Below, piece after piece: positions 13,789-58,402 of a DNA stretch of 64,000 nucleotides. Under the pieces are notes generated by a model. It saw only the letters and a list, made by a program, of their open reading frames with translations. It searched no databases and was not told the origin of the DNA. Within the stretch, counting starts at the first letter, position 1. Every line of letters starts with the position of its first letter. The translations under genes and the position numbers were made by a program. The DNA comes from a virus (taxonomy: Duplodnaviria; Caudoviricetes), in the IMG/VR virus record IMGVR_UViG_3300026546_000001, positions 1 through 64,000 of that record. One strand, written 5' to 3'.

Positions 13789-13861
13789 GTTTTATATATT
13801 TTTTATAAATATAATAAACATTTTTAAATTAAAAATCTATAAAATATAAATAATTATAAAA

Positions 13862-27983: not shown

Positions 27984-28048
27984 TATATTTTAGTATAAAT
28001 ACATATTTGTATTATATATTATAATTAATAATATAATGATTAATTCTA

Positions 28049-28633
28049 TTAATTCATAGCATAATTTGAAGGATAATTTATAAAAATTTTATACCTATTT
28101 CCAAGTTTTAATGTTAAAAATTCCCACAATTCTTCAGGATGTATTTTAAAAATACTTTCAATATTTGTTGGTTTATATACAGCCCATGAATCATGGTATA
28201 TTTCTTGTAATAATTGATCTGGACCCCATACAGCATTACCAATTATAGATTTAAATTTTTTATCACATAAATCATTTATAATATTTAAATTTGATGAGTA
28301 ATATAAATTTTGTGTTATTTTATTACTTTCTTGAATAAGTTCATCATTAAAATATAAAATATAAGATTTATTTAAATTAACTGGTCCACCATAGAAAATT
28401 TTAAAATTACGACAATTTAAATCATCATAAATTGTGACAGGATTTATATTAGTAATTTTATTTAAAATAAATCCAGTTGTTCCAAATTCATCATGTTCAG
28501 TAATTAATACAACTGATTTATAAAACATACCATATACATTTATTGGATTTGATATTAATACATCTCCAACATTAATTTCAGTCGTATTATTAAATTTATA
28601 TAACAAATTAAAATTTAAATATATGTCATCCAT
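28049..28633 (-). CDS. yqgE: YqgE/AlgH family protein (DUF179)
   Basis: FYKSVVLITEHDEFGTTGFILNK, FYGGPV, GNAVWGPDQLLQEI..DSW, ELW. Confidence 0.85.
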   Translation of the reverse strand: MDDIYLNFNLLYKFNNTTEINVGDVLISNPINVYGMFYKSVVLITEHDEFGTTGFILNKITNINPVTIYDDLNCRNFKIFYGGPVNLNKSYILYFNDELIQESNKITQNLYYSSNLNIINDLCDKKFKSIIGNAVWGPDQLLQEIYHDSWAVYKPTNIESIFKIHPEELWEFLTLKLGNRYKIFINYPSNYAMN

Positions 28634-31385
28634 TTTGTTGCAATCTAGATAATTGTAATATTGTATCTGTTTGTAATGTTTCTTCTTGTTGTAATGGCTT
28701 ATTACTAACTCTATAATTAATTCCTTCTAAACTAACGAATCCTGTTGCACCAGTGACTAATCTAACTAATCCATTTGGATAAATATCAATTCTACCATAC
28801 ATTAAATCCATGTTATTTGTTAAACTTCTTCCCCATGGAAATGCATTATTACCAGTTTTTGTAACTTTATTTTCTCCAATACTTGTTGCAACTAAAAATG
28901 TTTTTATAGTATCTGGTCTATATTCAATTGGTAAATATCCAATATTTGCAAATTCTGTATTTAATGTTGGATTACCAGAACGAATAATTAAATCTGGATA
29001 ACGTTTAGAATAATCAAAATCATCTTCTTCATTATCAAACCTTTGTTCTAATCTTATTAATCCAGTTAAATATACTCTTGATTCATGTTTGTAATATGAT
29101 GCGTTTGAATAAGAACTTCCAAAATTAATCCATCCATTTTCAAGTTGTAAATCTTTATTTTCTTCAACATTTTCATTATTTTCAATTTGTGTTAATCTAT
29201 CTGACAATTTTACTATTCCACCATCAGTTACAACTCCAATGTTATCAGCGTTATGTGCATAAAAAACATTATTATCTGTAAATTGTCCAGCTAAGTGTGT
29301 GTCTAATCCTTTTTCATTTAAATCTTGATTAATTTGTAATCTAACACTATCAAATTTAGCTTGTTCAACTATTGTTGCTTCTCTATCTTTAGGTGGTATT
29401 AATTCAGTTGGAAATTGTATTACAATTGAATCAGACCAATCAGATTCAATGTTTATACTTGGCCAACCAACTTCTGAAATTCCTTTAACACGTATTTCAG
29501 CTTGAACATTTGGAACAATTGGAATATCTAATTGATTAATATTTAATACATTTGGATTTGTTAAATCTTCTGGATCCCACTCGTATTTACCAGTACTTAC
29601 ATTAAAACTTCTACTTCTAACTGGACTAATATATTGATACCAATTACTAAATGATGCATTTATTGTATTACCATTTTCATCTTTAATTGTAAATGATTCT
29701 GTTGCACTTTCTTGTCCAGACGTAGATAAATATCTAAATTGAACAACAAATTGAATAACTTCTTGAGGTCTTGTTAATCCATTTGAAACTGGTTCAGGTA
29801 TTGGCCAAAAACCTCTAATTCTAAATTCAGGTTTAATATTTGGCACTAATGCTTCTTCAGAAATTATTTGTGCAACAGTTGTTTCTAATAATTTTGAAAC
29901 ATTATTTGCTTGTTCAGTTAATTTTTTAATTTCATTTTCAACTTTTTGTTTATCTCCTGGATTTGTAAAATGTTTTTTAATTAATTCATTTTGTTTTTCA
30001 ACAATTGTTTTATTTAATTCTTCAAGTTCACTACTATATGAAGTAGATTGAGCATGTAAAGTTTTTAACCTATCAGTTGTATTTGTATTAGTAATATTTT
30101 TATTAACTTGAACAACTGTAAAATTATCAGCATTTAAAATAACATTATTAGGTTTAAGTGCAAATTCAGTTGGAATATCTTTTTCAGCTAAATCTTGTAA
30201 TAATTTTCCATAATCTTGAACTGTATTAATATAATAATCATTTAAACTTAATCCATTTTCTCCAGTTTTAGAATCACTTAATAATTTTAAGTCATTAGTA
30301 TAATAAGCAGTACCAAGAGACCATTGTCTAGCTAATAAATTATTAGTTGTATTGATTGGTTTTAAAAATACAACATTATATTCATTAAATCCAACTGATA
30401 TTTTTATCACATTATCTTGTTCAACACCTGAATAATATTTTAATCCAGCTTGAATACCAATTGGTATTGCTTCATAACCTTCAACTCTTTCTAAATTAAC
30501 TCTAATTTGAGTTGCGTCATGAGATATTTCAATTATTTTCCAACGTGTAGTTGCAAATTCACTATTTATAACAACTTGGTCATTTATTTTAAGTTGATAT
30601 TCTTCTTTAGTTTTTATTTTATAATATGTTATTGTATCAAATAAATACCACATTTTTCTATTAACACTATCTTCTTCAACTCCTAATATTGTAAATAATC
30701 CATCATATTCTAAGTTATTTGGATTTAAATCAAAATATTGTTCGTCATATATTACTTTTTCACCATTTGGTTTAACATATAAACCAGGTGTATTTAAAAT
30801 CCAATTTTCTAATTCTTCCTGTGTTATATCTGTTCGTCCTTTAAAATTTTCATTAAATAAATTTTCTGCAATAGAACCTTGTTCAGTTAAATTTCCAAAT
30901 TCATCACGTTCAAATTTAACAATATATCGTTTTGATAATACGCGTCTAGTATCTTCATCTATCATATTTGTTAAATCAAAATTAACTGCAATAATTGGAT
31001 TTAATAATGCATCAAAAAAGCTATTATTTATAGATGAAAATGTATCAACTGTATTTAATTTACCTAATGAATTAGGTTCTTTATTAATATTAGCTCTAAT
31101 TATTTTTTGATATACATTATTAGCTGGTGTTACTATAGATCCACGACTATCAACACCACTTAATGTTTTAATATTTTGATCTAATCGATTTAATTGAGCT
31201 TGTATATATCCAACAGTTGGTAAATTTACAGATTCAACTACATCATTATTATTAATAACATCTAATTGTATTGTTGAATCATTACTTGTAACAATTTTAT
31301 TTAATCCATTTAATAATTTTATATTGTTTTCATTTAACTTTACAACTTGTTCTTGTGTACTTATAAAAGACGATTTTACACTCAT
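28626..31385 (-). CDS. Virion structural protein (919 aa) with central coiled coil and C-terminal tail-fibre-type domain
   Basis: C-terminal LENGWINF...RVYLTGLI...IGYLPIEYRP...GRIDIYPNG...VSLEGINY is typical of phage receptor-binding C-terminal domains. Confidence 0.7.
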   Translation of the reverse strand: MSVKSSFISTQEQVVKLNENNIKLLNGLNKIVTSNDSTIQLDVINNNDVVESVNLPTVGYIQAQLNRLDQNIKTLSGVDSRGSIVTPANNVYQKIIRANINKEPNSLGKLNTVDTFSSINNSFFDALLNPIIAVNFDLTNMIDEDTRRVLSKRYIVKFERDEFGNLTEQGSIAENLFNENFKGRTDITQEELENWILNTPGLYVKPNGEKVIYDEQYFDLNPNNLEYDGLFTILGVEEDSVNRKMWYLFDTITYYKIKTKEEYQLKINDQVVINSEFATTRWKIIEISHDATQIRVNLERVEGYEAIPIGIQAGLKYYSGVEQDNVIKISVGFNEYNVVFLKPINTTNNLLARQWSLGTAYYTNDLKLLSDSKTGENGLSLNDYYINTVQDYGKLLQDLAEKDIPTEFALKPNNVILNADNFTVVQVNKNITNTNTTDRLKTLHAQSTSYSSELEELNKTIVEKQNELIKKHFTNPGDKQKVENEIKKLTEQANNVSKLLETTVAQIISEEALVPNIKPEFRIRGFWPIPEPVSNGLTRPQEVIQFVVQFRYLSTSGQESATESFTIKDENGNTINASFSNWYQYISPVRSRSFNVSTGKYEWDPEDLTNPNVLNINQLDIPIVPNVQAEIRVKGISEVGWPSINIESDWSDSIVIQFPTELIPPKDREATIVEQAKFDSVRLQINQDLNEKGLDTHLAGQFTDNNVFYAHNADNIGVVTDGGIVKLSDRLTQIENNENVEENKDLQLENGWINFGSSYSNASYYKHESRVYLTGLIRLEQRFDNEEDDFDYSKRYPDLIIRSGNPTLNTEFANIGYLPIEYRPDTIKTFLVATSIGENKVTKTGNNAFPWGRSLTNNMDLMYGRIDIYPNGLVRLVTGATGFVSLEGINYRVSNKPLQQEETLQTDTILQLSRLQQNG

Positions 31386-40015: not shown

Positions 40016-40047
40016 ATATTATATATTAATACATAAAATTATAGTTT

Positions 40048-45894: not shown

Positions 45895-46416
45895 TTAATA
45901 TACTTTTTTAATAGAATCAAAAGATAATTCAACATCAGTTGGACGTCCAAAAATTTTAACTTCTACATTAACTCTTCCTTTACTTTCATCAACTTTTGTA
46001 ATAACACCTTCAAATGTTGAAAATGGTCCATCTACTATTGATATTTTTTCACCTTCCATCCAAATAGAATCTGTGTTTATTTTTTCCATTTTACCTAATA
46101 AACGTGTAATTTCATTTTCTGGAATTCGTGTTGGAACTGCGCGTTTTTCACCCATAAATCCTAATACACCTGGAACAGATAGTAATGATTTAATAACATA
46201 ATCCTTTGAAAGATCTGCGTTTAATATTACATATCCAGGTAATAATGGACGTTCCTTTGTTACGCGTTTATGTTTTTTAATTTCTAAATATTTTTCCATC
46301 GGAACAATAACTTGAGAAACGTATTCAGATAAATTATCAAGTTTTATTTTATTTTCTAAATTAGACTTAACTTTATTATCTTGTCCTTTTGCAACTTTCA
46401 ATATATACCAATTCAT
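45895..46416 (-). CDS. nusG: Transcription elongation/antitermination factor NusG
   Basis: WYILKVAKGQDNKV, LLPGYV, VPGVLGFMG, KOW IVDGPFSTFEGVI, VKIFGRPTDVELSF. Confidence 0.95.
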   Translation of the reverse strand: MNWYILKVAKGQDNKVKSNLENKIKLDNLSEYVSQVIVPMEKYLEIKKHKRVTKERPLLPGYVILNADLSKDYVIKSLLSVPGVLGFMGEKRAVPTRIPENEITRLLGKMEKINTDSIWMEGEKISIVDGPFSTFEGVITKVDESKGRVNVEVKIFGRPTDVELSFDSIKKVY

Positions 46417-47499: not shown

Positions 47500-48000
47500 T
47501 TAATTACTATTTTTTCTTTCTTCCTTAAGACGTTCCATGTTTTTATGATGAAAATATCTTAATTCATCTACTTCTTTTTTTAAAGCATCTTTATATGCAA
47601 TTGCTAACATTGTAAAAAATTTTTTAAAAGTGTAATAAATATAAACTAATTTTGGTTGTTCATTTTTATATTTTAACACCTTAATTATATTTAATTTATT
47701 ATCACTAAAAAAAGTTCTAATGCCATAAACTCTTACATTATATATTCCAGGTTTTTGTAATTTTTGCCAATCTTCATCAGCATCTAAATTTAATAGTATT
47801 AAATTTTTAAAAAAAGCTAAATTTAAATCTCTATCATATGGAACATAAAAAATATGTTTATCTGTTGTTATAACTTTTCTTATAATTTTACCATTTTCGG
47901 TTGTTTGAACAGCTTTAACAACATTAATTGTTATATTTTTATAACTTGCAAAAAATATAACAATAATTAAAATTGAAGTGTAAAAAATTATTTTTCTCAT
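47500..48000 (-). CDS. Membrane-anchored phage protein
   Basis: N-terminal TM segment; GIYNVRVYGIRTFF..NIIKV. Confidence 0.65.
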   Translation of the reverse strand: MRKIIFYTSILIIVIFFASYKNITINVVKAVQTTENGKIIRKVITTDKHIFYVPYDRDLNLAFFKNLILLNLDADEDWQKLQKPGIYNVRVYGIRTFFSDNKLNIIKVLKYKNEQPKLVYIYYTFKKFFTMLAIAYKDALKKEVDELRYFHHKNMERLKEERKNSN

Positions 48001-48027: not shown

Positions 48028-48035
48028 CAAATATA
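48028..48035 (-). promoter_or_regulatory. Bacteroidota-type -7 element TATATTTG
   Basis: caaatata on + strand, 27 nt upstream of the ATG at 48000. Confidence 0.6.
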
Positions 48036-48064: not shown

Positions 48065-48532
48065 TTAATTATTTTTTAATAAATTTTCGCGTATTCTCAT
48101 TAATAATATTCCAAGTTTATTTTCACCAATTCCATATCTTGTATCAACACCCCAATAATTATCATGCCAATTATTACCTTCAATTAATATATATCCAACA
48201 GTATTTAAAAGATCTTGAGCAAGTTTTGTACCAGGCGCAAATTTTTGAATTAATGCTTCAGTCATAAATTTTAATTTAACAGTATCCCAATCAAGCCTAT
48301 AATCTAATTCATCTTCAAAAATTCGTTTACCAAATAATTTAGCATCCTTAGGTTCTAATATAGACGCAACATGTTTATGAACATTAATATCATAACTTTT
48401 CATTGCTTGATAATAATGTTCTACAGATGGATACATTATTTGATTTTCATCCTTAATTATACATGGATAAAAATTAGATAAAAATCTATATTGTTTCCTA
48501 AAACTTGTTATTGCACCTTTAGAAATATCCAT
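48065..48532 (-). CDS. NADAR (YbiA-like) family hydrolase
   Basis: FLSNFYPC, YPSVEHYYQAMK, DWDTVK, ALIQKF, LIEGNNWHDNYWG, GENKLGILLMRIRE. Confidence 0.93.
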   Translation of the reverse strand: MDISKGAITSFRKQYRFLSNFYPCIIKDENQIMYPSVEHYYQAMKSYDINVHKHVASILEPKDAKLFGKRIFEDELDYRLDWDTVKLKFMTEALIQKFAPGTKLAQDLLNTVGYILIEGNNWHDNYWGVDTRYGIGENKLGILLMRIRENLLKNN

Positions 48533-48735
48533 TACCCCACGCGTGAACGTATTACAATACCATTGTTTATGTCTAAGTTTATTCTTTTTGGATTATAATC
48601 AGCTGAAACTATTAGTGGATTTCCATCTTTTTCTGTAATTCTATAAACTGCTCCAGCTTTTTCAATTCTTTTTTTTGCATCTTCAAATTTCATATTCACA
48701 CAACTTTCTGCAACTTTATCTAAAATTCCTAACAT
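48532..48735 (-). CDS. Small peptidase inhibitor I78-like protein
   Basis: IVSADYNPKRINLDINNGIVIRSRVG matches the TxDyxxxRlnvxvxxgxVxxxxxG pattern. Confidence 0.6.
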   Translation of the reverse strand: MLGILDKVAESCVNMKFEDAKKRIEKAGAVYRITEKDGNPLIVSADYNPKRINLDINNGIVIRSRVG

Positions 48736-48766
48736 AATAATATTTTATTTTTATATTATAAAAAAA

Positions 48767-49468
48767 TTATCCAAAATGTTTTGTATTTTTAGAATGCATA
48801 TATACATCTTCTATTTTTTCTCTATCAGAAGCGTTGTAAATTCTACTTAAATCTATTCCATCTTCTCTTAATAAATTTACACATTTTTTAACGCGTTCAA
48901 TATAAATTTCAGATGTTCCTTTACCTAAATGCGTATTATATTCAGATTTCCAATATTCTGCTCTTTCTTCTAATGTTTTAGGAATTGGTTTTGTATCAAT
49001 TAATATTAACATTCTTGCTGCAATAGCTCCAAATAATGCTGTATTACATAATTCAACACTTGTATTTAACCAATCAATACCAAAATGTTTTAAATTTTTA
49101 TAATATTTTAATAATGATCTATGTGATTTATAATTTTTAGTTTCATTAAATCCTACTTCATTCATTTGAAATGGACCTCTATCTTTATGTCCTAGTCTAA
49201 AAGTTTGAGGATGTGTACCTAACATACTTTCAACCATTGCTATTTCTAATAAAAATAAATGTCCACCTATATTTTTATTTGGATTTAACATTTTAATAGC
49301 AGTGTTTATTGATTTACTTATTAATTTATAATTATTTCCAATATTATTAATTCCTTTTTTAGGAACAACTGCAAGTTTAAATATTTTGTGATTTGGTAAA
49401 TTACTTAAATCTTCTTTAAATTGTTGTATTGGAGACATTGCATATTCATTAAATGCGTAAATTTTCAT
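48767..49468 (-). CDS. Lysozyme-like (lytic transglycosylase-type) protein with capsid-targeting-like N-terminus
   Basis: IAMVES (candidate catalytic Glu), RGPFQM (GxxQ), AEYWKSEYNTHLGKGT; N-terminus MKIYAFNEY. Confidence 0.6.
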   Translation of the reverse strand: MKIYAFNEYAMSPIQQFKEDLSNLPNHKIFKLAVVPKKGINNIGNNYKLISKSINTAIKMLNPNKNIGGHLFLLEIAMVESMLGTHPQTFRLGHKDRGPFQMNEVGFNETKNYKSHRSLLKYYKNLKHFGIDWLNTSVELCNTALFGAIAARMLILIDTKPIPKTLEERAEYWKSEYNTHLGKGTSEIYIERVKKCVNLLREDGIDLSRIYNASDREKIEDVYMHSKNTKHFG

Positions 49469-49501
49469 TATAAAAATATAATTTTAATTATATATTAAAA
49501 T

Positions 49502-49534
49502 AAAAAAAGAGATATATTAAAAATATATCTCTTT
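49502..49534 (-). terminator. Intrinsic terminator directly after the tmRNA
   Basis: AAAGAGATATAT-TAAAA-ATATATCTCTTT hairpin with a T-run on the minus strand. Confidence 0.8.
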
Positions 49535-49535
49535 G

Positions 49536-49881
49536 TGGACGTTACGGGAGTCGAACCCGTGTCCGATACGTTGTCATAAGTATAATCTACATGCTTAGTA
49601 TTTTTAAGGTAAAATACAAACCATAAAATTTGTCATTTTTATTAATTCATTTTAGTAATAAAATAACAAAAAATACTAAAATATAACTTCTTTATGACTA
49701 CCAATATGATTTAACGAAGTTATTAAATCTAGTAGTTTGCATTGTAATTCTTAATCACGCTGCAAATGCAAAAGTTTCTTTGCCATTTATAATTGTTCTG
49801 CAAAAAGTTTAACGAGATTATTACAATTACTCGACATGCATATACTTATAATCAATGTACGTCAAAAGCCAAATAACGCCC
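49536..49881 (-). ncRNA. ssrA: tmRNA (transfer-messenger RNA), tag peptide (A)GKETFAFAA
   Basis: 5' GGGCGTTATTTGGCTTTTGAC; 3' GGACACGGGTTCGACTCCCGTAACGTCCA with T-arm; acceptor stem GGGCGTT/AACGTCC with G3-U wobble and discriminator A; internal ATAAAT-GGC AAA GAA ACT TTT GCA TTT GCA GCG TGA (49784-49755); 346 nt. Confidence 0.95.
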
Positions 49882-49897
49882 ATATTTTAACTATATA

Positions 49898-50758
49898 TTA
49901 TAATTTACTATGATATTCATCAAGTATTTTTTGTTCATCTTTCGTTAAAGATTTAATTCCTCTTTTATTTATTTTATCTAATATTTTATCTATTCTATAT
50001 TGTAATGGTACATCTCGTTCTATAGGTTTAACGTTATTAGTTAATAACCTATATTTTTTTGACTTAAATTTAGATAAATCTATATTTTTATTAACACCAG
50101 TTTTATGCAATATTTTTGTAAATGGCATAAGTATATCACGAAATCTTAATCGATAATATGCGTATATTAATCCAAATAAACCACCACCCAAATGTGAAAT
50201 TTTACCAGCAGTATTACTTTTAAAATCTATTATAACACCTAAAACAACTAATATTATAGCGATCCATTTTAATTTAACTGGACCAAATATAAATAAATTT
50301 ACAGTATAATTTGGTCTATAATATGCAGTTGCAACCATTATAGCATATATTGATCCACTAGCACCTAATAATACGCCACCACTGTTAAAAAATAATATTG
50401 TTAATAATGCAGCTGATATTCCACCTACAATATAAATACTTAATGTTGTTGTTTTATCAAAAAATAATTGTGTAAGTCGCCCAAACAACCATAAAATTAT
50501 CATATTATTAAACAAATGCCAAAAACTTAAATGTAAAAATTGATATGTTAAAAACGTCCAAATTTTACTAAATGCAGATGTTGAAAGTGGTAATGCTATA
50601 TAATTTGCAAAAAAACTTCCTAAATTAAAAAAATTAACTGATATATTAGCAAATAAAAATATTATTGTATTAACAATAATAAGTTTAATATACATATCAT
50701 TTATAGTTGTTGGTCGATATGATTTTTGAACATTTCTATTATAATATAGTCCTCTCAT
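49898..50758 (-). CDS. Rhomboid family intramembrane serine protease with Bacteroidota-type C-terminal domain
   Basis: WTFLTYQFLH..FWHLFNNM, LLGASG (catalytic Ser), SHLGG (catalytic His), C-terminal IDKILDKINKRGIKSLTKDEQKIL. Confidence 0.93.
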   Translation of the reverse strand: MRGLYYNRNVQKSYRPTTINDMYIKLIIVNTIIFLFANISVNFFNLGSFFANYIALPLSTSAFSKIWTFLTYQFLHLSFWHLFNNMIILWLFGRLTQLFFDKTTTLSIYIVGGISAALLTILFFNSGGVLLGASGSIYAIMVATAYYRPNYTVNLFIFGPVKLKWIAIILVVLGVIIDFKSNTAGKISHLGGGLFGLIYAYYRLRFRDILMPFTKILHKTGVNKNIDLSKFKSKKYRLLTNNVKPIERDVPLQYRIDKILDKINKRGIKSLTKDEQKILDEYHSKL

Positions 50759-50784
50759 AATATTAAGTTTTATAAATTACAGGA

Positions 50785-50792
50785 CAAATATA
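50785..50792 (-). promoter_or_regulatory. Bacteroidota-type -7 element TATATTTG
   Basis: caaatata on + strand, 26 nt upstream of the rhomboid ATG. Confidence 0.6.
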
Positions 50793-50816
50793 ATAAAAAT
50801 AACTAAAATAAAAAAA

Positions 50817-51281
50817 TTATAATGATATAATAAAAACAATCATATCCTTTAATTCTTCTGCTATTATATTTTGTATTATATTCCAATCACCACCAGCTAA
50901 ACCAGATCCAATTTTAGGTAATCCAATTTTTTTATGTGGATATTTAAAATTTATTTTTCTTAAACATAATCTTAATGCGTCATAATCAACATAACGAATA
51001 TTATTACGTCCATAATTATACTGAATATAACAATTAATAACTATAACTTTTTTACCATTAACACTATCAACGTTTGCATATGTATAATTACCTAATTTAT
51101 TATAATCACCTGGAATAGTTTTTAAATCTGCTTCATACACGCTAGGATATTCTTTAGATATTTGCGCAGCTAAACCAGATTTCATTTTACAAAAACAATT
51201 GCAACCATGTACAACAATATCAAACGTTCCGTATTTAATATGTGTAATTATATCTCCTTTTATATTTACCAAATTTCCCAT
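50817..51281 (-). CDS. Macrodomain ADP-ribose hydrolase (T4 tk.4-like / TARG1-DarG-like)
   Basis: IKGDI, VHGCNCFCKMKSGLAAQI, INCYIQYNYG, PKIGSGLAGGDW. Confidence 0.92.
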   Translation of the reverse strand: MGNLVNIKGDIITHIKYGTFDIVVHGCNCFCKMKSGLAAQISKEYPSVYEADLKTIPGDYNKLGNYTYANVDSVNGKKVIVINCYIQYNYGRNNIRYVDYDALRLCLRKINFKYPHKKIGLPKIGSGLAGGDWNIIQNIIAEELKDMIVFIISL

Positions 51282-51469
51282 AAATAATTAACATTTTTAT
51301 AATTAAAACCAGATTTAAATTCATCAACCCACTTACCAATTAATATTCCAAATTCATATGGATAAACTAATATTAATAAAAAAACAATAATTAAAAATAT
51401 TATTAATAATATTTTAGGCCATTTTCGTTTATATGGTAACATTTCTGTAGATACTTTTATATTATTCAT
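51266..51469 (-). CDS. Small single-pass membrane protein
   Basis: ILLIIFLIIVFLLILVY; overlaps both neighbours. Confidence 0.65.
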   Translation of the reverse strand: MNNIKVSTEMLPYKRKWPKILLIIFLIIVFLLILVYPYEFGILIGKWVDEFKSGFNYKNVNYLWEIW

Positions 51470-53207
51470 TTTCTATAAAAAACAATTTTCTTTTACTTTT
51501 ATTTACATGTAAAACTTTAAGTTTTACAAAATCACCAATTTTATATTTTTTCTTACTATTTTTAAATTTAAGAACACCATTTATTAAATATTCACTACGT
51601 ATTTTATATTCATTATTTTTTATTGATATTATTTGTCCATTAACTTTAACATCATTATATTCCAAATATTTAAATGTTTGATAATAAAATAATTTATTTT
51701 CAATTTTACTAATTAATAGTTCTTTTGAATTTATATGTTTAATAATATTATTTTGTATTTTAATAGGTTTTTTATTATATAAAATAGCATTTAACATTCT
51801 ATGAACTAATATATCAGTGTATCGTCTTATTGGACTTGTAAAATGAGTATAATATGATCTGTTTAATGCAAAATGACCATTATCAGATAATGAATAATAT
51901 GCTTTTTGTTGAATACTTAATAAATAATAACTAATTAAATATTTATATTTTAAATCTTTTTCTAATAATAAATCATAAATTTCATTAAATGTATCTTCAT
52001 TTTTAAATTCATAACCTATTTTTTTAAGTTCTTCTTTTAAAATATTAAGTTTTTTATTATTAGGAGAATTATGAATTCGTAATAAATTATGTTCATAATA
52101 TTTTGATAAATGTGTCGCAATATATGTATTAGTTAAAATCATTAATTCTTCAATAATTTTTTCAGCATCGCCTTTTTCTTTTAATATTGGAACATATTTA
52201 TTATCATCGTCGAGTTCTAATTTTAATTTTGGTTCTAATATTTTTAATCTTTTATTTTTAACTATATTATCTACTATTGTTTTAATATTATTAAAATATT
52301 CAAAATCTTCATGGTTATCATCCTTTAATATTTTATTTACCTGATTATATGATAAATTTTGTATTACATTTATTGCTGATTTTTTAATTTCATAATCTAT
52401 AATATTATAATCTAAATTTATTTTAAATAATACGGATATAGTTAATTTTAATTCATTTTCCTTTAATGAACAAATACCATTACTTAATTTGTGTGGTAAC
52501 ATTGGAACTAAAGCATTAGGAAAATATAATGTAAAACTACGTCTGAACGCTTCTAGATCAACTAAACTATGTTCAGTTATAAATTCAGTGACATCAGAAA
52601 TATGTACGCCTAAAACGTATTCTGTACCATTAAATTCTAAAGATATTGCGTCATCAAAATCTCTACTATTTTTAGGATCAATAGTATAACACTTTAAATG
52701 AGTTAAATCTATTCTATGTTTTAAATGTTTTGTTGATATTTTAATATCTTCAATTTCATTTATGATATTTTCTGAAAATTTAAACGGTAAAAATTTTTTA
52801 AATATTTGACGTTCAGATTCATTAGATTTTGATAATATATTTACAATTTTACCATATGGTAATCGTTGACCTTCTTCCCACTTATAAAATTCTACTTCAA
52901 CAATATCACCATGTCTTGCACCATTCATTTGTTTATGATTTATAATAAAATCAGTATATGATTGTTGTCCTTTAGTTAATACAAATCCAGTTTTATTAAC
53001 ATATTCATATAATCCAACATATTTACATGTAGAACGATTTAATATTTTAGATACACGTGTTTTTCGTCTAACGACTGTAAGTTGCACTTTATCATTAAAT
53101 AAAGCACCATTTAAATTTTCATTTTTTATTTTATAACGTTTTCCTTCGTCAGATATTAATAATGACCATTTATCACTTATATATGTAATTGTTCCAATTA
53201 TTTGCAT
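51462..53207 (-). CDS. rnr: Ribonuclease R (RNase II/RNB family)
   Basis: Cold-shock-like N-terminus (NGALFND, GARHGDIV), TIDPKNSRDFDDAIS, VPMLPHKLSNGICSL, IEELMILTN, HFALN..YTHFTSPIRRYTDILVHR, S1-like end. Confidence 0.93.
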   Translation of the reverse strand: MQIIGTITYISDKWSLLISDEGKRYKIKNENLNGALFNDKVQLTVVRRKTRVSKILNRSTCKYVGLYEYVNKTGFVLTKGQQSYTDFIINHKQMNGARHGDIVEVEFYKWEEGQRLPYGKIVNILSKSNESERQIFKKFLPFKFSENIINEIEDIKISTKHLKHRIDLTHLKCYTIDPKNSRDFDDAISLEFNGTEYVLGVHISDVTEFITEHSLVDLEAFRRSFTLYFPNALVPMLPHKLSNGICSLKENELKLTISVLFKINLDYNIIDYEIKKSAINVIQNLSYNQVNKILKDDNHEDFEYFNNIKTIVDNIVKNKRLKILEPKLKLELDDDNKYVPILKEKGDAEKIIEELMILTNTYIATHLSKYYEHNLLRIHNSPNNKKLNILKEELKKIGYEFKNEDTFNEIYDLLLEKDLKYKYLISYYLLSIQQKAYYSLSDNGHFALNRSYYTHFTSPIRRYTDILVHRMLNAILYNKKPIKIQNNIIKHINSKELLISKIENKLFYYQTFKYLEYNDVKVNGQIISIKNNEYKIRSEYLINGVLKFKNSKKKYKIGDFVKLKVLHVNKSKRKLFFIENE

Positions 53208-53701
53208 TATAAATCTTCAATTGTATTTATATGTTCATTGTTATATGAAAATTGTTCCATTTTTTTAACAAATGTATTAAAATAATAATCACTATTATAA
53301 TTATATCTAAAAATATACAAACTAAATAATTTTTGTTTAAACATCTTAAAATCTACACTAGAAATTTTAATCATACGCCAAAATTTATTTTCAACATTTG
53401 AATTATTTTTATCATTATAATAATAAGGTAATATTACAATTGTACATACATAAAAACTTTTATCATAAAATAAATTAAATTTAGCAGTAACGTCATATTG
53501 TTTAATTAAATCATTTGAATACATTAATGGTTCTAATGATGCAATATGTGCATTTGGTTTTTCATCAACATTTTCAATTGTAAACCTAATTTCAAATCTA
53601 TTTTCATGTTCAAATGTAACATCAAAATAATTAAAATTAGTTCTATCATTTAATATATTATGTAATATCTCTATAATTTGTTCATCTAATTTATTATTCA
53701 T
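53207..53701 (-). CDS. Hypothetical protein
   Basis: ORF track; coupled to both neighbours. Confidence 0.65.
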   Translation of the reverse strand: MNNKLDEQIIEILHNILNDRTNFNYFDVTFEHENRFEIRFTIENVDEKPNAHIASLEPLMYSNDLIKQYDVTAKFNLFYDKSFYVCTIVILPYYYNDKNNSNVENKFWRMIKISSVDFKMFKQKLFSLYIFRYNYNSDYYFNTFVKKMEQFSYNNEHINTIEDL

Positions 53702-55041
53702 AATTTTTCATTTAATTCATTTAAATCATCAATATACATTTGTTTTGGAACTAACTTTTTAATTTTATTTAATTCCTTAGTTTTTGTTTTAATTAAATTT
53801 TGTAATTCCGTGTATTTTTCATATGTTAAACTATTTATATTCATATTTAGTAAATAGTTATATGAATCTTGATACATTTCAATTTTTAATTTAACTAAAT
53901 CTTTTTCAATAACTAATCTTTTACGTTTTGTTACAATTAATTTACCATCTACAATAGCTTTAATAAATTTAGCTTTATTACTTAAAACAAATAAATCATG
54001 TTCTAATTTATCAATCATATATTGTTTTCGTAACTCATAAAAATTCAACCTAAAATCTACAAAATATTTTATAATATCTTCAGCTGATTCAAATATTTTT
54101 AATTTACCATTTTCATCTAATGTATTATAATCTTCAGTATATGATTCTGATAACTTAAATAATTTAATAATATCTTCTTCTGTCAATGATCTTAATGTTT
54201 GTCTATTAAATTTTATAACATACTCTATATAATCTTTTGAATTATCATCATAAGATACTATTGTTTTATTTGTTACTAAATTTTCTAATATATTTTCAAA
54301 TTTTTCAAATGTCATTGATGGTGACAATTCAGTTATTTTTAATGTTGTAGTATTAACTTTTTCAAATGTTCCAGCAGCGACCCACTTTTTTGGATTATTT
54401 TTATCCTTAATAAATTTACCATTAAAAAACTTCATCTTAGGTTTAATTGTTCTAAGTGGTTTATCGTTTAAATAATTTAAGCATTGTTTTATTACATCTT
54501 TTGGATCTCTTAATAAAATATTTGCCGCATATCCAACTGCTATACCTTTTGATCCATTTACAAGTATCATAGGAATTATAGGAAGAAAATATTTAGGTTC
54601 AATTTTAGTTCCTTCTTCTTCTTTTAATTCTAATAATTCAAAATCTTTATAAACTAATCTAAAATTTTTATGAAGTTTTGTTGAAATATATCTTGGAGCT
54701 CCTGCATCTGGTGCTCGTAATGATCCAAATTGACCAATTTCTTCTAATAGCGGTAAGTTATTTTTAAAATGTTGAGCCATGTTTATAATAGCTGAATACA
54801 ACCCAGCATCACCATGGTGATAGTATACATCATGCGCTATTTTACCTCCCAATTGAAAAATTTTCATTGGTTTTTCATTTCCAGTTTTCCAAATTTTGCT
54901 AGCTACATGTATTATTTTACGTTGTGTTGGTTTTAATCCATCTATAACACTTGATAGTGCTCGTGACTCAATAACATACATTGCATAATTTGTATATTCA
55001 TTATTTAAATATTCGCTTATAGTTCTAGTTTTTCCTATCAT
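53698..55041 (-). CDS. gp52: Type IIA DNA topoisomerase, breakage-reunion subunit (T4 gp52-like)
   Basis: RALSSVIDGLKPTQRK, YHHGD, GQFGS, GAPRYI (catalytic Tyr), EPKYFLPIIPMILVNGSKGIAVG. Confidence 0.95.
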   Translation of the reverse strand: MIGKTRTISEYLNNEYTNYAMYVIESRALSSVIDGLKPTQRKIIHVASKIWKTGNEKPMKIFQLGGKIAHDVYYHHGDAGLYSAIINMAQHFKNNLPLLEEIGQFGSLRAPDAGAPRYISTKLHKNFRLVYKDFELLELKEEEGTKIEPKYFLPIIPMILVNGSKGIAVGYAANILLRDPKDVIKQCLNYLNDKPLRTIKPKMKFFNGKFIKDKNNPKKWVAAGTFEKVNTTTLKITELSPSMTFEKFENILENLVTNKTIVSYDDNSKDYIEYVIKFNRQTLRSLTEEDIIKLFKLSESYTEDYNTLDENGKLKIFESAEDIIKYFVDFRLNFYELRKQYMIDKLEHDLFVLSNKAKFIKAIVDGKLIVTKRKRLVIEKDLVKLKIEMYQDSYNYLLNMNINSLTYEKYTELQNLIKTKTKELNKIKKLVPKQMYIDDLNELNEKL

Positions 55042-55742
55042 GTTGTTAATACATTTATCATTTTTTTACTATATGCTTCTTCTAAGTCAGTAATATTTTT
55101 AATAGTATATTCTGAATTATATAACATTGGTATTATATGTATTTTATATTCATTAAAATCATTAAAGTTTATATTTTGTCTTAATGAACCATTAATGTAT
55201 TTTGGATACCACGTATTTTCAGTATATAATTTTGAATAATCATAAATAAAAAGTCTTGTTGCTCTATTACTAGGAACAAACACGTCTTTTATTTTAGTAT
55301 GTTCTGTTCTAACTAAAATTTTTTCTTTATCAAATATAATATATTCATTAACTTTTATATTTTCAGGATTAAATATTAAATACATTCCAACTTTTTTAAA
55401 ATTAATATTTTTATTTATTTTAAGTTTTTTAACTACTGCATGATATGAATTTAAAATTTGTCCAAGATGATGAAATATTAAAATATTTTTATCTTTAACA
55501 ATATAAAATCTACCAATTGATATTTCTTTTTTATTAATACGCGTTCTTAATGTTCTTGGATGTGTTCTATAATCAGAAAAAATCAGTCTTTTATTTTTAA
55601 TATTATCATTTATACCATCTTCAATATTTGATTCTAATATATCATAAGAATATAAATAATATTTAGATGACCGTCTTTTTTTATAATCCTCACGAGCTGC
55701 TTCAAGTATAATGTTACTAACTAAATCAATTAATTCGTTCAT
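55038..55742 (-). CDS. Hypothetical protein, paralog of 55744-56460
   Basis: Shares IGxFY, VPSNRxTRxF, YP.yIN, IPMLYN and EExYS with its neighbour. Confidence 0.75.
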   Translation of the reverse strand: MNELIDLVSNIILEAAREDYKKRRSSKYYLYSYDILESNIEDGINDNIKNKRLIFSDYRTHPRTLRTRINKKEISIGRFYIVKDKNILIFHHLGQILNSYHAVVKKLKINKNINFKKVGMYLIFNPENIKVNEYIIFDKEKILVRTEHTKIKDVFVPSNRATRLFIYDYSKLYTENTWYPKYINGSLRQNINFNDFNEYKIHIIPMLYNSEYTIKNITDLEEAYSKKMINVLTT

Positions 55743-55743
55743 A

Positions 55744-56460
55744 TTATGATGTTAAATTTTTTACTAATAATTGAGAATAATGTTCTTCTACATCCTTTAT
55801 TGTTTTATGTTGTGGTTGTATGTTATATAACATTGGTATTAAATCTAAATTATGTTGTATTATATTATTTTTTATCATTTCTGAATAAACACTTTCATTT
55901 ATTATTATAGGATAACGATGAGATTCTGCATACAAATAGTTGTAAGATAATACAAATATTCTAGTAGATCTATTACTTGGAACATACATTGTTTTTATTT
56001 GTGTATATGGTGACTTTATAACATATCGTTTATTTGAAAGTTCTACAGGTTTATTAATTTTTATTGAATTTTTTTCTTTTTCAAATATTATAAATGGCCC
56101 AGCATGTTTATGATCATATGATGAATCATTAATAAATCTTTTTATTGCAACATACATTGAAAAATCAGGATAAATATGATTATATACTAAAATTTCTTTA
56201 TATAAATAAAAAATACCAATAGTCATATTTTTTTTATATTTATACATTGCATTTATTGCAGAATTTAATTTATAAAAATCTGCTTTTATTTCATATCGTT
56301 TATAATATTTAAATTCAATTGGATTAATGTCTCTAATTATTTTGCAATATCTATGAACATTTTGTTCCTGCATTTTATGTGTAATTGCAAGTTCAATTAT
56401 TATATTTAATTCGTCCATTAAATCTTCTAAATTAAAGTCATTAACAAAACCTAAATTCAT
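55744..56460 (-). CDS. Hypothetical protein, paralog of 55038-55742
   Basis: Same shared motifs. Confidence 0.75.
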   Translation of the reverse strand: MNLGFVNDFNLEDLMDELNIIIELAITHKMQEQNVHRYCKIIRDINPIEFKYYKRYEIKADFYKLNSAINAMYKYKKNMTIGIFYLYKEILVYNHIYPDFSMYVAIKRFINDSSYDHKHAGPFIIFEKEKNSIKINKPVELSNKRYVIKSPYTQIKTMYVPSNRSTRIFVLSYNYLYAESHRYPIIINESVYSEMIKNNIIQHNLDLIPMLYNIQPQHKTIKDVEEHYSQLLVKNLTS

Positions 56461-58316
56461 GTTAATAATTTTTCCTTTCTTAATTTACTATTATTGCCAA
56501 ACCAACATGATAAATTTTCTTTAGTGTCATTGTCAATTTTTATTTCAACTGCATATGGATTTCTAATCATGTCTTTATATTCAACATCTTCCAAACTTGC
56601 TAAACCTTTTTTATATTCTAAATTCCATTTACTTAAATCTGTTTTCTGTGCCCACTTTTCAAAATCATGCTCATTATAAAAATATTTAACTCTTTTACCA
56701 TTTTTTGCAACCATTAATGGCGTATAAACTTTATAAATTCTTTTTTGTTCAAATAATTCAGGCCAAAATTTATAAAAGAAATTTATTAATAACGCTGAAA
56801 TAGCATCACCATCAACATCTGCGTCAGCTGTAATATAAATCTTTTTATATCTTAATTCTTCTTCATTTACTTCTTGTCCAATATGCAATCCTATAGATGC
56901 TATTAAATTTTTTGCTTCTTCATTTTCAATAACTTTAGAAGCTTTTATTTCTGATACATTTATAAATTTTCCTTTAAGTGGAAATGCACCTTGCGTTTGA
57001 GGATCTCTAAATTTTCTAAAACTTGATAATGCAGATAATCCTTCAAATATAAATAATTCTTTATCAGTGTTTTTAGTAGATTTAGCATCAATTAATTTTG
57101 CAACTTTAATCTTTTTTAATTTCTTACTTTGTCTATTTAATTCTTGTAATTCTCTTGCTTCAATCCAATCTATAATTGTTTGACAAATATCAGATTTTAC
57201 AATTTTTTTAATAAATTGATCTTTAAATTCTAAATCTAATATTTCTTTTGTTATTGTTGTTGTTAAATATTCCTTTGTCTGTGTGTCAAATGTTGGATTT
57301 GGAACTTTAGCAATTACAAATAGAAATAAATTACTTTTTACATTATTCCAAGTAAATTTTAATTTTTTATGTTTTTTAGCTAATTGTTCATATACAATTT
57401 TTGATAATTCCATTGATATTTTGTTAATATGCGTTCCACCTCTATGAGTTGAAATACCATTAACAACACTAATTTGATCAAAAATTGAATCACTTGATTT
57501 AGCAACACCAATTTCCCAATTTTTATCTAATTTATCATAATAAAAATCAGTTTCATCTTCTAAATGCATTGTCATCCAATCTTTAATACTTTTAATTGGA
57601 ATAACTTTACCATTATAACTAACTTGAACTGCTGGACAATAAGCAGCAACATCTATTATACGTTTCAATAATATTGATAATGTATCATCATCTAATTCTG
57701 TCATTTCAAATTTTTCCCAATCAGGCCAATACTTAACTTTTGTATAATTTCTATTTGTTTCAGATATACTTGGACGACCTTTTTTACGAGGATGCATATT
57801 TTGTTGAAATGATTGTCTATATTTATGAATACCATCTGCTGTTTCAACAATAAATTTAGTAGAAAATATATTTGTTAATTTTGCTCCTAATCCATTTCGT
57901 CCTCCACCAAAACGAACTTCATCATCATTAAAATTTGATCCAGCTAATAAATGACCAAATATCAATTCTGGTATATAAACACGTTCTTTTTTATGTTTTT
58001 TAATTGGAATACCTTGACCGTCATTATATACTTCAAATTTTTCACCATCAAACGTAATCTTAATTTTTTTAACAGACTTAGTTCTCCAATAATGATCAGA
58101 TGCATTTGTTAATATTTCATCAAATATCTTAATAAATGCTGGTGTATATTTAACAGATTTTTTAACAATTTTAATATTATTAAGATCACGTGGATTTTCT
58201 AAAACCCACATATCTGTTATAATTGGTTTAACACTTCCAACATATGTATCAGGTCTTTTTAAAACGTGTTCTCGTTGAGTTAATTTTTGATATGTTTGTT
58301 CTAATGTACTTGGCAC
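56457..58316 (-). CDS. gp39: Type IIA DNA topoisomerase, ATPase + TOPRIM subunit (T4 gp39+gp60-like)
   Basis: EHVLKRPDTYVGS, KIFDEILTNASD, NDGQGIP, GGRNGLGAKLTN, GGTH, FEGLSA, PLKGKFIN, DADVDG, YKKGLAS. Confidence 0.95.
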   Translation of the reverse strand: MPSTLEQTYQKLTQREHVLKRPDTYVGSVKPIITDMWVLENPRDLNNIKIVKKSVKYTPAFIKIFDEILTNASDHYWRTKSVKKIKITFDGEKFEVYNDGQGIPIKKHKKERVYIPELIFGHLLAGSNFNDDEVRFGGGRNGLGAKLTNIFSTKFIVETADGIHKYRQSFQQNMHPRKKGRPSISETNRNYTKVKYWPDWEKFEMTELDDDTLSILLKRIIDVAAYCPAVQVSYNGKVIPIKSIKDWMTMHLEDETDFYYDKLDKNWEIGVAKSSDSIFDQISVVNGISTHRGGTHINKISMELSKIVYEQLAKKHKKLKFTWNNVKSNLFLFVIAKVPNPTFDTQTKEYLTTTITKEILDLEFKDQFIKKIVKSDICQTIIDWIEARELQELNRQSKKLKKIKVAKLIDAKSTKNTDKELFIFEGLSALSSFRKFRDPQTQGAFPLKGKFINVSEIKASKVIENEEAKNLIASIGLHIGQEVNEEELRYKKIYITADADVDGDAISALLINFFYKFWPELFEQKRIYKVYTPLMVAKNGKRVKYFYNEHDFEKWAQKTDLSKWNLEYKKGLASLEDVEYKDMIRNPYAVEIKIDNDTKENLSCWFGNNSKLRKEKLLT

Positions 58317-58402
58317 TATATTAATATTATTTTTTCAGTTTTTATATATAAACTAAAAATTAAAATAGTTTTAAAACATCTATTTTAACTTTACTTAATA
58401 AA

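Follow-up and report, generated by a model that had tools for sequence, protein, structure and literature searches.

The genes at positions 48065-53207 of a phage DNA window raise the question of whether a run of quality-control enzymes lying side by side works as one counter-defence system, or whether these enzymes are neighbours for another reason. The window is a 64-kb stretch, the first part of a 158,295-base IMG/VR virus record. An earlier description of it, made from the letters and their translations (the sequence-only reading), had placed within about 5 kb of the minus strand an RNase R, a small membrane protein, a macrodomain, a rhomboid protease, a tmRNA, a lysozyme-like protein, an I78-like inhibitor and a NADAR protein, and had proposed that they form a toolkit against abortive infection. 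We observed that all eight features are present on that strand and in that place. The catalytic residues of the RNase, the rhomboid and the NADAR, as well as the ligand loops of the macrodomain, are recognisable in the translations and are intact. The unity of the set did not survive the analysis: the genes fall into at least four predicted transcription units with two promoter classes, and their families are scattered in more distant relatives. Our conclusion, of moderate confidence, is that the stretch belongs to the auxiliary (host-takeover) genes of a giant, T4-like Bacteroidota phage, and that it combines several independent functions which descent, and not membership of one machine, has placed side by side. 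All window coordinates given below refer to the minus strand.

Promoter-like motifs and a terminator divide the stretch into predicted transcription units

Eight genes abut or overlap from the start of a GyrB-like gene (58316) to the end of the macrodomain gene (50817), and a phage-type promoter motif, TATATATAA (58342-58350), stands 25 nt before the GyrB-like start. This first predicted unit runs from the topoisomerase genes through those of the RNase R, the membrane protein and the macrodomain, so that, from their arrangement, the latter three genes are the tail of a topoisomerase II operon, and an active RNase II/R-family exonuclease would be co-transcribed with the topoisomerase II genes. 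A second predicted unit, comprising the rhomboid gene and the tmRNA, stands behind TATATTTG (50785-50792), a Bacteroidota-type -7 box located 26 nt before the rhomboid start. The same element also follows the macrodomain gene in all five of the relatives L001-L005. Within this unit, a near phage-type motif, AATATATAG, ends 9 nt before the 5' end of the tmRNA, and the relative L017 has the exact AATATATAA at that place. Transcription of the tmRNA would accordingly be driven by the rhomboid promoter and probably by one of its own as well.

Directly after the tmRNA there is an intrinsic terminator (49499-49534), in which a U-run succeeds a hairpin of 13 bp (dG -11.8 kcal/mol, z -6.0). It is kept in four relatives (L001, L016 and L017 among them), and in L001 the sequence of the stem differs. 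Next to it lies the phage-type promoter motif AATATATAA (49488-49496), 19 nt before the gene of a 233-aa lysozyme-like protein and kept in L001, L016 and L017. The gene of the CI-2-like protein (the "I78-like inhibitor") begins 31 nt past the 233-aa gene and its stop overlaps the start of the NADAR gene; these three genes make up the third predicted unit. At the downstream edge of the stretch a second TATATTTG box (48028-48035) stands 27 nt before the next gene (47500-48000), and the genes downstream of 48035 constitute the fourth. The sequence-only reading had already noticed an internal promoter and a terminator and held that the cluster is not a single transcript; this was borne out, the terminator being real and the promoters recognised at the level of motifs.

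The two promoter classes could be told apart by their motifs. The Bacteroidota-type box, TAnnTTTG, stands before three genes. The phage-type motif, DATATATAA, is depleted in the window (28 copies against 47.8 expected), and 18 of the 28 copies lie within 60 nt (3-51 nt) upstream of a gene start on the same strand, where ∼3% would be expected. Examples are the copies at 1473-1481, 13792-13800, 28012-28020, 40019-40027 and 49488-49496. In its distribution DATATATAA thus behaves as a phage-specific promoter. A sigma-70 consensus scan gave 114 sites against 123 expected, which is uninformative in DNA this rich in AT, and it missed the AT-rich terminator. Judged from motifs and predicted RNA structure, the stretch would consist of at least four transcription units served by two classes of promoter, and the phage-type promoter ahead of the lysozyme-like, CI-2-like and NADAR genes would be one that probable virion genes also use.

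Gene order is kept in close relatives and dispersed in distant ones

In relatives with 60-90% identity, the order was found to be kept from the topoisomerase through the RNase, membrane protein, macrodomain, rhomboid, tmRNA, lysozyme-like, CI-2-like and NADAR genes and on to a NusG-like gene, with one or two small genes inserted in an otherwise whole order. Relatives at 52% identity retain the RNase, the membrane protein, a small gene and the macrodomain; the tmRNA was not found on their contigs, which are short. The slot after the promoter that follows the macrodomain gene holds a 120-aa gene in L003 and L005. In L004, a Logan contig (SRR28147562), a bacterial class-A RNase P RNA match (L004:3612-3798; 36.8 bits, E 3.7e-8) follows directly after the macrodomain gene and its TATATTTG box, at the slot that the rhomboid gene and the tmRNA occupy in the window, and ends at the contig edge. 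This match may represent a phage-encoded RNase P RNA, the other reading being an assembly chimera. The RF00010 model had no match in the 158-kb fragment or in three related ∼635-kb phages, and an exact-match search of IMG/VR for the L004 segment gave none.

The three ∼635-kb phage genomes (LR756502.1, LR745206.1 and LR756504.1) gave a different picture. RNase R, SmpB, NADAR and rhomboid are encoded in all three, tens to hundreds of kb apart, and the Pfam Macro model had no match in any of them. In LR756504.1, 167 kb separate the tmRNA (at 280 kb) from the RNase (at 448 kb). That genome does have a looser block, in which lysozyme-like, GyrB-like, topoisomerase A and RNase genes are followed by the membrane-protein, NusG and rhomboid genes over 25 kb, interspersed with unrelated genes (for an Rce1-like protease and a fructose bisphosphatase). 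A megablast search with the 5-kb stretch gave no matches in the phage collection, and neither did IMG/VR scans with the RNase alone or with a six-sequence RNase alignment reveal relatives. The matches from a single metagenome scanned with the RNase had 27-29% identity only and are uninformative on synteny. Synteny in jumbo-phage relatives, which the sequence-only reading had named as a check, was therefore found at 60-90% identity, whereas in the three ∼635-kb phages the families are scattered. Giant Bacteroidota phages repeatedly have the gene set of RNase R, SmpB/tmRNA, NADAR and rhomboid, though not as a tight cluster.

Several observations weigh against descent alone as the reason for the closeness of these genes. 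The grouping is tight: in a genome estimated at ∼460 kb, a segment of 5 kb encodes four activities that could each pass for repair, and relatives with as little as 52% identity still have RNase R, the membrane protein and the macrodomain together. Even in the dispersed genomes some distances are short: in LR745206.1 NADAR and RNase R are separated by 9 kb, and in LR756504.1 the rhomboid and RNase R by 17 kb. Furthermore, the assignment of promoter classes and of any expression timing rests on motifs, and the fragment in which smpB was sought and not found covers ∼34% of the genome.

The exoribonuclease belongs to the RNase II/R superfamily

The 581-aa RNase (51462-53207) is a 3'-5' exoribonuclease of the RNase II/R family by its matches to the RNB domain (PF00773, 2.8e-86) and to CSD2. 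It consists of cold-shock/OB domains, the RNB core and then ∼65 residues, without an N-terminal helix-turn-helix (HTH) region. Six homologues share the DPxxxxDxDDA and SPIRRY motifs without change (D177, D183, D185, D186, R461 and R462). The name RNase R, which the sequence-only reading had given it, stands at the level of the RNB family with an intact active site and not at that of the equivalog: TIGR02063 scored 373.8 bits against a cut-off of 597.85, aligning to residues 6-516 only and leaving ∼70 N-terminal model positions unmatched, and RNase II models likewise remained below their cut-offs. The 65 C-terminal residues gave just one match, weak and S1/CSD-like (E 0.005), and PF00575 (S1) does not match the close phage homologues, unlike the bacterial ones. 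As the protein ends with this weak S1-like domain, it seems to have no room for a C-terminal extension. On these sequence features the enzyme is a member of the RNase II/R superfamily, to be called RNase R at family level only.

The closest homologues (75%, 74% and 52-53% identity) are on short metagenomic contigs, and the nearest cellular relatives are bacterial RNase R proteins at 30-35% identity. The phylogeny that we made is a quick tree. In it the RNase of the window lineage groups with that of LR756504.1, a grouping that is uncertain because both branches are long and AT-biased. The RNase R proteins of LR756502.1 and LR745206.1 nest with those of uncultured Bacteroidota and are separate from the window lineage. 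This nesting suggests that RNase R was gained at least twice, and that in these two phages it represents a separate, more recent capture from the host phylum.

The gene that follows encodes a 67-aa membrane protein with one hydrophobic span in its translation (51266-51469), overlapping both neighbours. By tblastn, every relative found retains it behind RNase R (L001-L005 and LR756504.1, which is L012). In LR756504.1 (L012:23427-24184) its homologue shares one base with the gene of an Rce1-like CAAX intramembrane protease, near which a fructose-1,6-bisphosphatase gene is located.

Upstream of the RNase gene, the first predicted unit is headed by the large, GyrB-like subunit of a phage topoisomerase II (56457-58316; Pfam DNA_gyraseB, Toprim and HATPase_c). 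The A-type subunit (53698-55041; PF00521 2.6e-86, phrog_551 2.6e-147) overlaps both of its neighbours. Between the two subunit genes are two paralogous genes of 234 and 238 aa without an assigned family (55038-56460), each of which matches the other's homologues in L002 and L003. A 164-aa protein (53207-53701), the stop of which overlaps the RNase start, had no match in Pfam, PHROG, NCBIfam or PADLOC.

The tmRNA carries a lineage-specific tag

A full-length, one-piece tmRNA is located at 49533-49881. It scored 95.9 bits against Rfam RF00023 (gathering score 47), covering the full model (1-374), and the tmRNAs of relatives scored 87-99 bits. Its 5' end lies 16 nt past the rhomboid stop, and the RNase gene is 1.6 kb away. 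In the acceptor stem, 5' GGGCGUU pairs with AACGUCC, giving a G3:U pair (G3:U70), and no CCA is encoded. The G3:U pair is retained through compensatory changes in L001, L016 and the copy of LR756504.1, the last of which was not called by ARAGORN. The acceptor stem is tRNA-Ala-like, and the tmRNA would be charged with alanine.

The tag frame identified by ARAGORN reads GKETFAFAA followed by a stop, with a hydrophobic-Ala-Ala end. Among four phage tmRNAs, three have GKETFAFAA and one (L016) has DNESFAFAA: FAFAA is constant, while the first four residues and their codons, the stop codon and, synonymously, one Phe codon vary. Such constancy of FAFAA amid varying codons speaks for a tag that is translated and subject to selection. 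We compared it with 35 Bacteroidota tmRNA tags, a small sample drawn from 5 named genomes and 150 genomes taken evenly across the phylum. All 35 end in ALAA, AMAA, RLAA or SLAA, GENNYALAA-like 9-mers being common, and the FAFAA end occurs in none of them. On this comparison the FAFAA tag appears specific to the phage lineage and departs from the sampled Bacteroidota tags, and it is a new detail; a host bearing such a tag may nevertheless exist.

Huge phages are known to carry tmRNA and SmpB (Al-Shayeb et al. 2020, PMC7162821), and tmRNA is present in about 2.3% of phage genomes (PMC9004378). The window resembles the former in having a full-length tmRNA in a very large phage with a predicted Bacteroidota host; the difference is that its tmRNA adjoins a rhomboid gene and stands 1.6 kb from an RNase II/R gene. 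The sequence-only reading had suggested that smpB be sought in the rest of the genome. No PF01668 match was found in the 158-kb fragment, ∼34% of the genome, and SmpB is encoded in all three ∼635-kb relatives, of which LR756504.1 is the only one with a full tmRNA. The tmRNA would work with the SmpB of the host or with one encoded in the remaining two thirds of the phage genome, and it would release ribosomes that have stalled on non-stop or cut mRNAs, irrespective of what made the cut. The stalled ribosomes may be due to defence RNases or to the phage's own host shut-off, two sources that are not distinguishable from sequence.

A functional link between tmRNA and RNase R, in trans-translation, had been cited in the sequence-only reading as established. 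In Escherichia coli, RNase R acts in the tmRNA-dependent breakdown of non-stop mRNA (reviewed in PMC12320835), and Bacillus subtilis has an rnr-smpB-ssrA operon (PMC12320835). The phage arrangement echoes that operon, in that an RNB-family exoribonuclease with intact catalytic motifs is linked to a tmRNA; it differs in that no smpB lies between the two and that they belong to separate predicted transcription units. Moreover, coupling of the E. coli enzyme to tmRNA-SmpB and the ribosome needs a C-terminal K/R-rich extension (PMC12320835), and the phage enzyme, at 581 aa compared with ∼700-810 aa for bacterial RNase R, lacks the N-terminal HTH region and, as it seems, this extension.

The macrodomain and the NADAR retain pocket or catalytic residues for probable ADP-ribose removal

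The 154-aa macrodomain protein (50817-51281) matched PF01661 with 33.6 bits (cut-off 22) and phrog_335 at 2.2e-48. Its nearest solved structures are Bacteroides BT1257 (2FG1, 2.3e-12) and the macrodomain of DarG (5M3I, 5e-5), and the loops of the ADP-ribose pocket, GCNCFC..SG.A and IG.P.IG.GL.GG.W, are invariant in six homologues. It resembles the BT1257/DarG/TARG1-like phage macrodomains ('putative phosphatase', phrog_335) in being a single macrodomain with conserved pocket loops. In contrast to DarG, it is far below the equivalog score (28.8 against 250 bits for NF048014; PADLOC DarG, 26 bits), and its 154 residues leave it without the second, C-terminal domain that binds DarT. The family matches 2934 phage records and is therefore not specific to this cluster. 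Phage macrodomain mimics of DarG have been reported as counter-defence (PMC11481870, PMC13309987).

The 155-aa NADAR protein (48065-48532) is a predicted ADP-ribosyl/N-glycosidase. It matched PF08719 (1.6e-24, 87.4 bits against 35.1) and passed TIGR02464 (76.5 against 73.7). Its residues E38, K45, E118, D124 and W127 align to the catalytic and ligand residues E43, K50, E125, D130 and W133 of PDB 8BAU (numbering from PMC11543638). Its signature residue is the glutamate that marks YbiA-type NADARs as a subfamily (PMC11125620), different from the histidine of T4 gp30.3 and the aspartate of DarG1, and it is ∼43% identical to NADARs of T5-like phages, a figure that does not refer to AdfN of Bas32. 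Phage NADAR 'orphan antitoxins' (AdfN) neutralise DarTG1, the tested ones including AdfN of Bas32, a close relative of T5 (PMC11825919). The window protein is likewise a stand-alone phage NADAR with all five catalytic and ligand residues. On the other hand, E. coli YbiA and the T4 NADAR gave no protection from DarT1 in one in vivo set-up (PMC11125620), so that the specificity of the window protein is not predictable. Large phages are known to have Macro and NADAR proteins together, frequently encoded in early regions or packaged into virions (PMC9503650, PMC7824862).

Both enzymes thus have, on alignment, intact pocket or catalytic residues for removing ADP-ribose. Most likely they would take it off nucleic acids or degrade molecules derived from ADP-ribose that host defences produce, DarT-type modification being the tested precedent. 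The proposal that they counter ADP-ribosylating toxins is supported by the intact sites and the published DarT precedents. By analogy with characterised systems, ADP-ribose removal and ribosome rescue with RNA turnover are two well-grounded sub-functions of the stretch.

The remaining proteins point to the envelope and to proteolysis

The rhomboid (49898-50758) is an intramembrane serine protease with a C-terminal DUF6576 (PF01694, 1.2e-23, 84.3 bits against 22.6; PF20216, 2.2e-11). Its S134, in a GASG/GASA motif, and H189 are invariant in homologues, and WHxFNN (HxxxN) is kept. It remained below the GlpG and rhombosortase equivalog cut-offs. With GlpG-type bacterial rhomboids carrying a C-terminal DUF6576 it shares the six-helix core, the GxSG serine, the histidine and HxxxN, the difference being that it is encoded by a phage. 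Phage rhomboids are rare: 7 of 50,697 phage records matched, three of them the ∼635-kb relatives. A scan of the genome contigs with the rhomboid alignment gave no matches.

The 233-aa protein (48767-49468) was predicted by AF2 (pLDDT 90) to have a lysozyme/lytic-transglycosylase fold. In a wide VIA-align search, every row with Z ≥5 was a lysozyme-superfamily glycosidase acting on peptidoglycan or chitin, and the matches to MltE, MltF, phiKZ gp144 and the phi6 lysin had Z of 7-8.9. Foldseek against PDB showed no clear match (best E about 0.7). E80, which ends the helix 70-81, is invariant together with Q101, N178 and G184, and S81 nearly so. The family has at least 483 homologues, in which the domain is often at the end of proteins of 800-1800 aa; the protein itself has no Pfam match, and a Pfam scan of 60 homologues gave no common family. 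As its gene shares the promoter motif with the giant genes of the window, a virion or lysis role would fit.

The 67-aa protein (48532-48735) has a predicted fold of the potato inhibitor I type (CI-2/eglin/I78; AF2 pLDDT 89, Foldseek). CI-2, eglin c, AFUEI (the I78 prototype) and plant inhibitors make up its 50 best Foldseek rows, with TM scores of 0.57-0.66 and a best E of 3e-3. PF00280 scored 15.6 bits, below its cut-off of 24.5, and PF11720 had no match. A viral 'potato inhibitor I' cluster of the Atlas was recovered at 0.90 among small, mostly viral clusters. The protein resembles CI-2, eglin c (MEROPS I13) and AFUEI (I78) in its small alpha/beta fold, its exposed loop and a C-terminal ...RVG, which the C-terminal ending of CI-2 itself presumably resembles, and differs from the potato inhibitor I family in scoring under the Pfam cut-off. 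A homologue with 37% identity over 51 aa lies beside a six-tRNA array in the 642-kb genome LR756502.1 (L014:186-338, near 372.5 kb). For both of these neighbours of the NADAR, the designations lysozyme-like and I78-like can thus be kept at the level of the modelled fold, and not as membership of a curated sequence family.

Together, the active rhomboid, the small membrane protein, a peptidoglycan-cleaving lysozyme-like protein and a putative serine-protease inhibitor of CI-2 fold would form an envelope and proteolysis group. No evidence was found that links any of these four to the reversal of damage, and the suggestion that the rhomboid repairs what membrane effectors do is not supported.

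Genome context and host

CheckV estimated the completeness of the 158,295-base fragment at ∼34%, from which the full genome would be roughly 460 kb. Its G+C content is 23.5%, uniform at ∼23% across the stretch, and it has one tmRNA and no tRNA genes. The surroundings of 48065-53207 include the two topoisomerase II subunits, two giant ORFs and a NusG-like gene. The ORF of 3273 aa (1485-11306) has a DATATATAA copy ∼55 nt upstream, outside the copies assigned to gene starts; for the ORF of 2607 aa (20160-27983) and for the gene at 28626-31385 a copy is found within 60 nt upstream. The NusG-like protein (45895-46416; PF02357 8.3e-19 and KOW), 1.6 kb downstream of the stretch, is conserved with 79% identity in L016 and 41% in LR756504.1.

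Several indications make Bacteroidota the likely host phylum: the TAnnTTTG boxes, which we take to be the -7 promoter consensus of Bacteroidota; the DUF6576 tail of the rhomboid, presumably a feature of the same phylum; and kinship to the ∼635-kb phages assigned to Bacteroidetes. That assignment is published for phage genomes of >634 kb (PMC7162821).

Alternative explanations of the clustering

According to the toolkit idea, each gene reverses one class of abortive-infection damage, that is, mRNA cleavage (tmRNA and RNase R), ADP-ribosylation (macrodomain and NADAR) and the action of membrane effectors (rhomboid), and the clustering was selected for joint deployment. Intact catalytic sites throughout and a gene order kept at 60-90% identity, and in part at 52%, are what it would expect. 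The retention of RNase R, SmpB, NADAR and rhomboid in the three ∼635-kb relatives agrees with it too, as do the weak but specific similarity of the macrodomain to DarG and the ∼43% identity of the NADAR to those of T5-like phages, given that AdfN of the T5 relative Bas32 neutralises DarT1 (PMC11825919). However, genes deployed jointly are not expected in at least four units under two promoter classes, with RNase R and the macrodomain belonging to a topoisomerase operon and the lysozyme-like and CI-2-like genes outside the scheme altogether. The families are dispersed in distant relatives, which moreover gave no Pfam Macro match; the RNase is apparently without the extension that couples E. coli RNase R to tmRNA-SmpB (PMC12320835); and we found no published link of phage tmRNA, RNase R or rhomboid to counter-defence. 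The idea is therefore partly upheld, for its ADP-ribose enzymes and not for the unity of the cluster, and we regard an integrated toolkit as quite unlikely. A far more remote account, that the segment is captured bacterial DNA or an assembly chimera, could appeal to gene families that are all typical of cellular genomes and to bacterial RNase R as the nearest cellular relatives of the RNase. The uniform ∼23% GC, the embedding among phage topoisomerase II, NusG-like and giant genes, the phage-type promoter motifs, the recurrence of the block on independent contigs from several samples and an identity to bacterial proteins of only 30-35% make it almost certainly wrong.

A narrower proposal would make a single module of the RNase, the tmRNA and a phage SmpB encoded elsewhere, a trans-translation system of the phage's own in which FAFAA alters the fate of tagged proteins and the other genes are unrelated neighbours. 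It draws on the 1.6 kb between RNase and tmRNA, kept in the closest relatives, on a tag end that is constant in four phage tmRNAs despite codon variation and that is found in 0 of 35 sampled Bacteroidota tmRNAs, on SmpB in the three ∼635-kb relatives and on the precedent of the bacterial operon (PMC12320835). The two genes are, on the other side, in different predicted units and 167 kb apart in LR756504.1, and the K/R-rich extension is missing. The 52% relatives have a 120-aa gene or an RNase P RNA match in the slot and no tmRNA on their short contigs, and 35 host tags are a small sample. We consider this proposal unlikely. An elaborated form of it is more doubtful still: a private branch in which the FAFAA tmRNA, the extension-less RNase and a probable phage SmpB recycle ribosomes after host mRNA has been cut by phage or defence RNases, tagged products being routed differently, in a group of phages that, to judge by the RNase P RNA match at the corresponding slot of a sister lineage, may supply its own stable-RNA machinery. 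Independent functions that share a neighbourhood by descent remain the reading we prefer.

Meaning for giant Bacteroidota phages

The attraction of the toolkit idea is thus limited. Its genes are real and intact, and their closeness is best explained by shared descent within an auxiliary region. Part of the picture was already known, namely the action of phage NADAR and macrodomain proteins against DarT-type ADP-ribosylation and the occurrence of tmRNA and SmpB in huge phages. The new details are the FAFAA tag, an RNase R apparently without C-terminal extension and, in a relative, a possible RNase P RNA. Phage rhomboids, being rare and unexplained, are worth following up. For giant phages of Bacteroidota, the recurrent RNase R, SmpB and/or tmRNA, NADAR and rhomboid are good candidates for functional tests.

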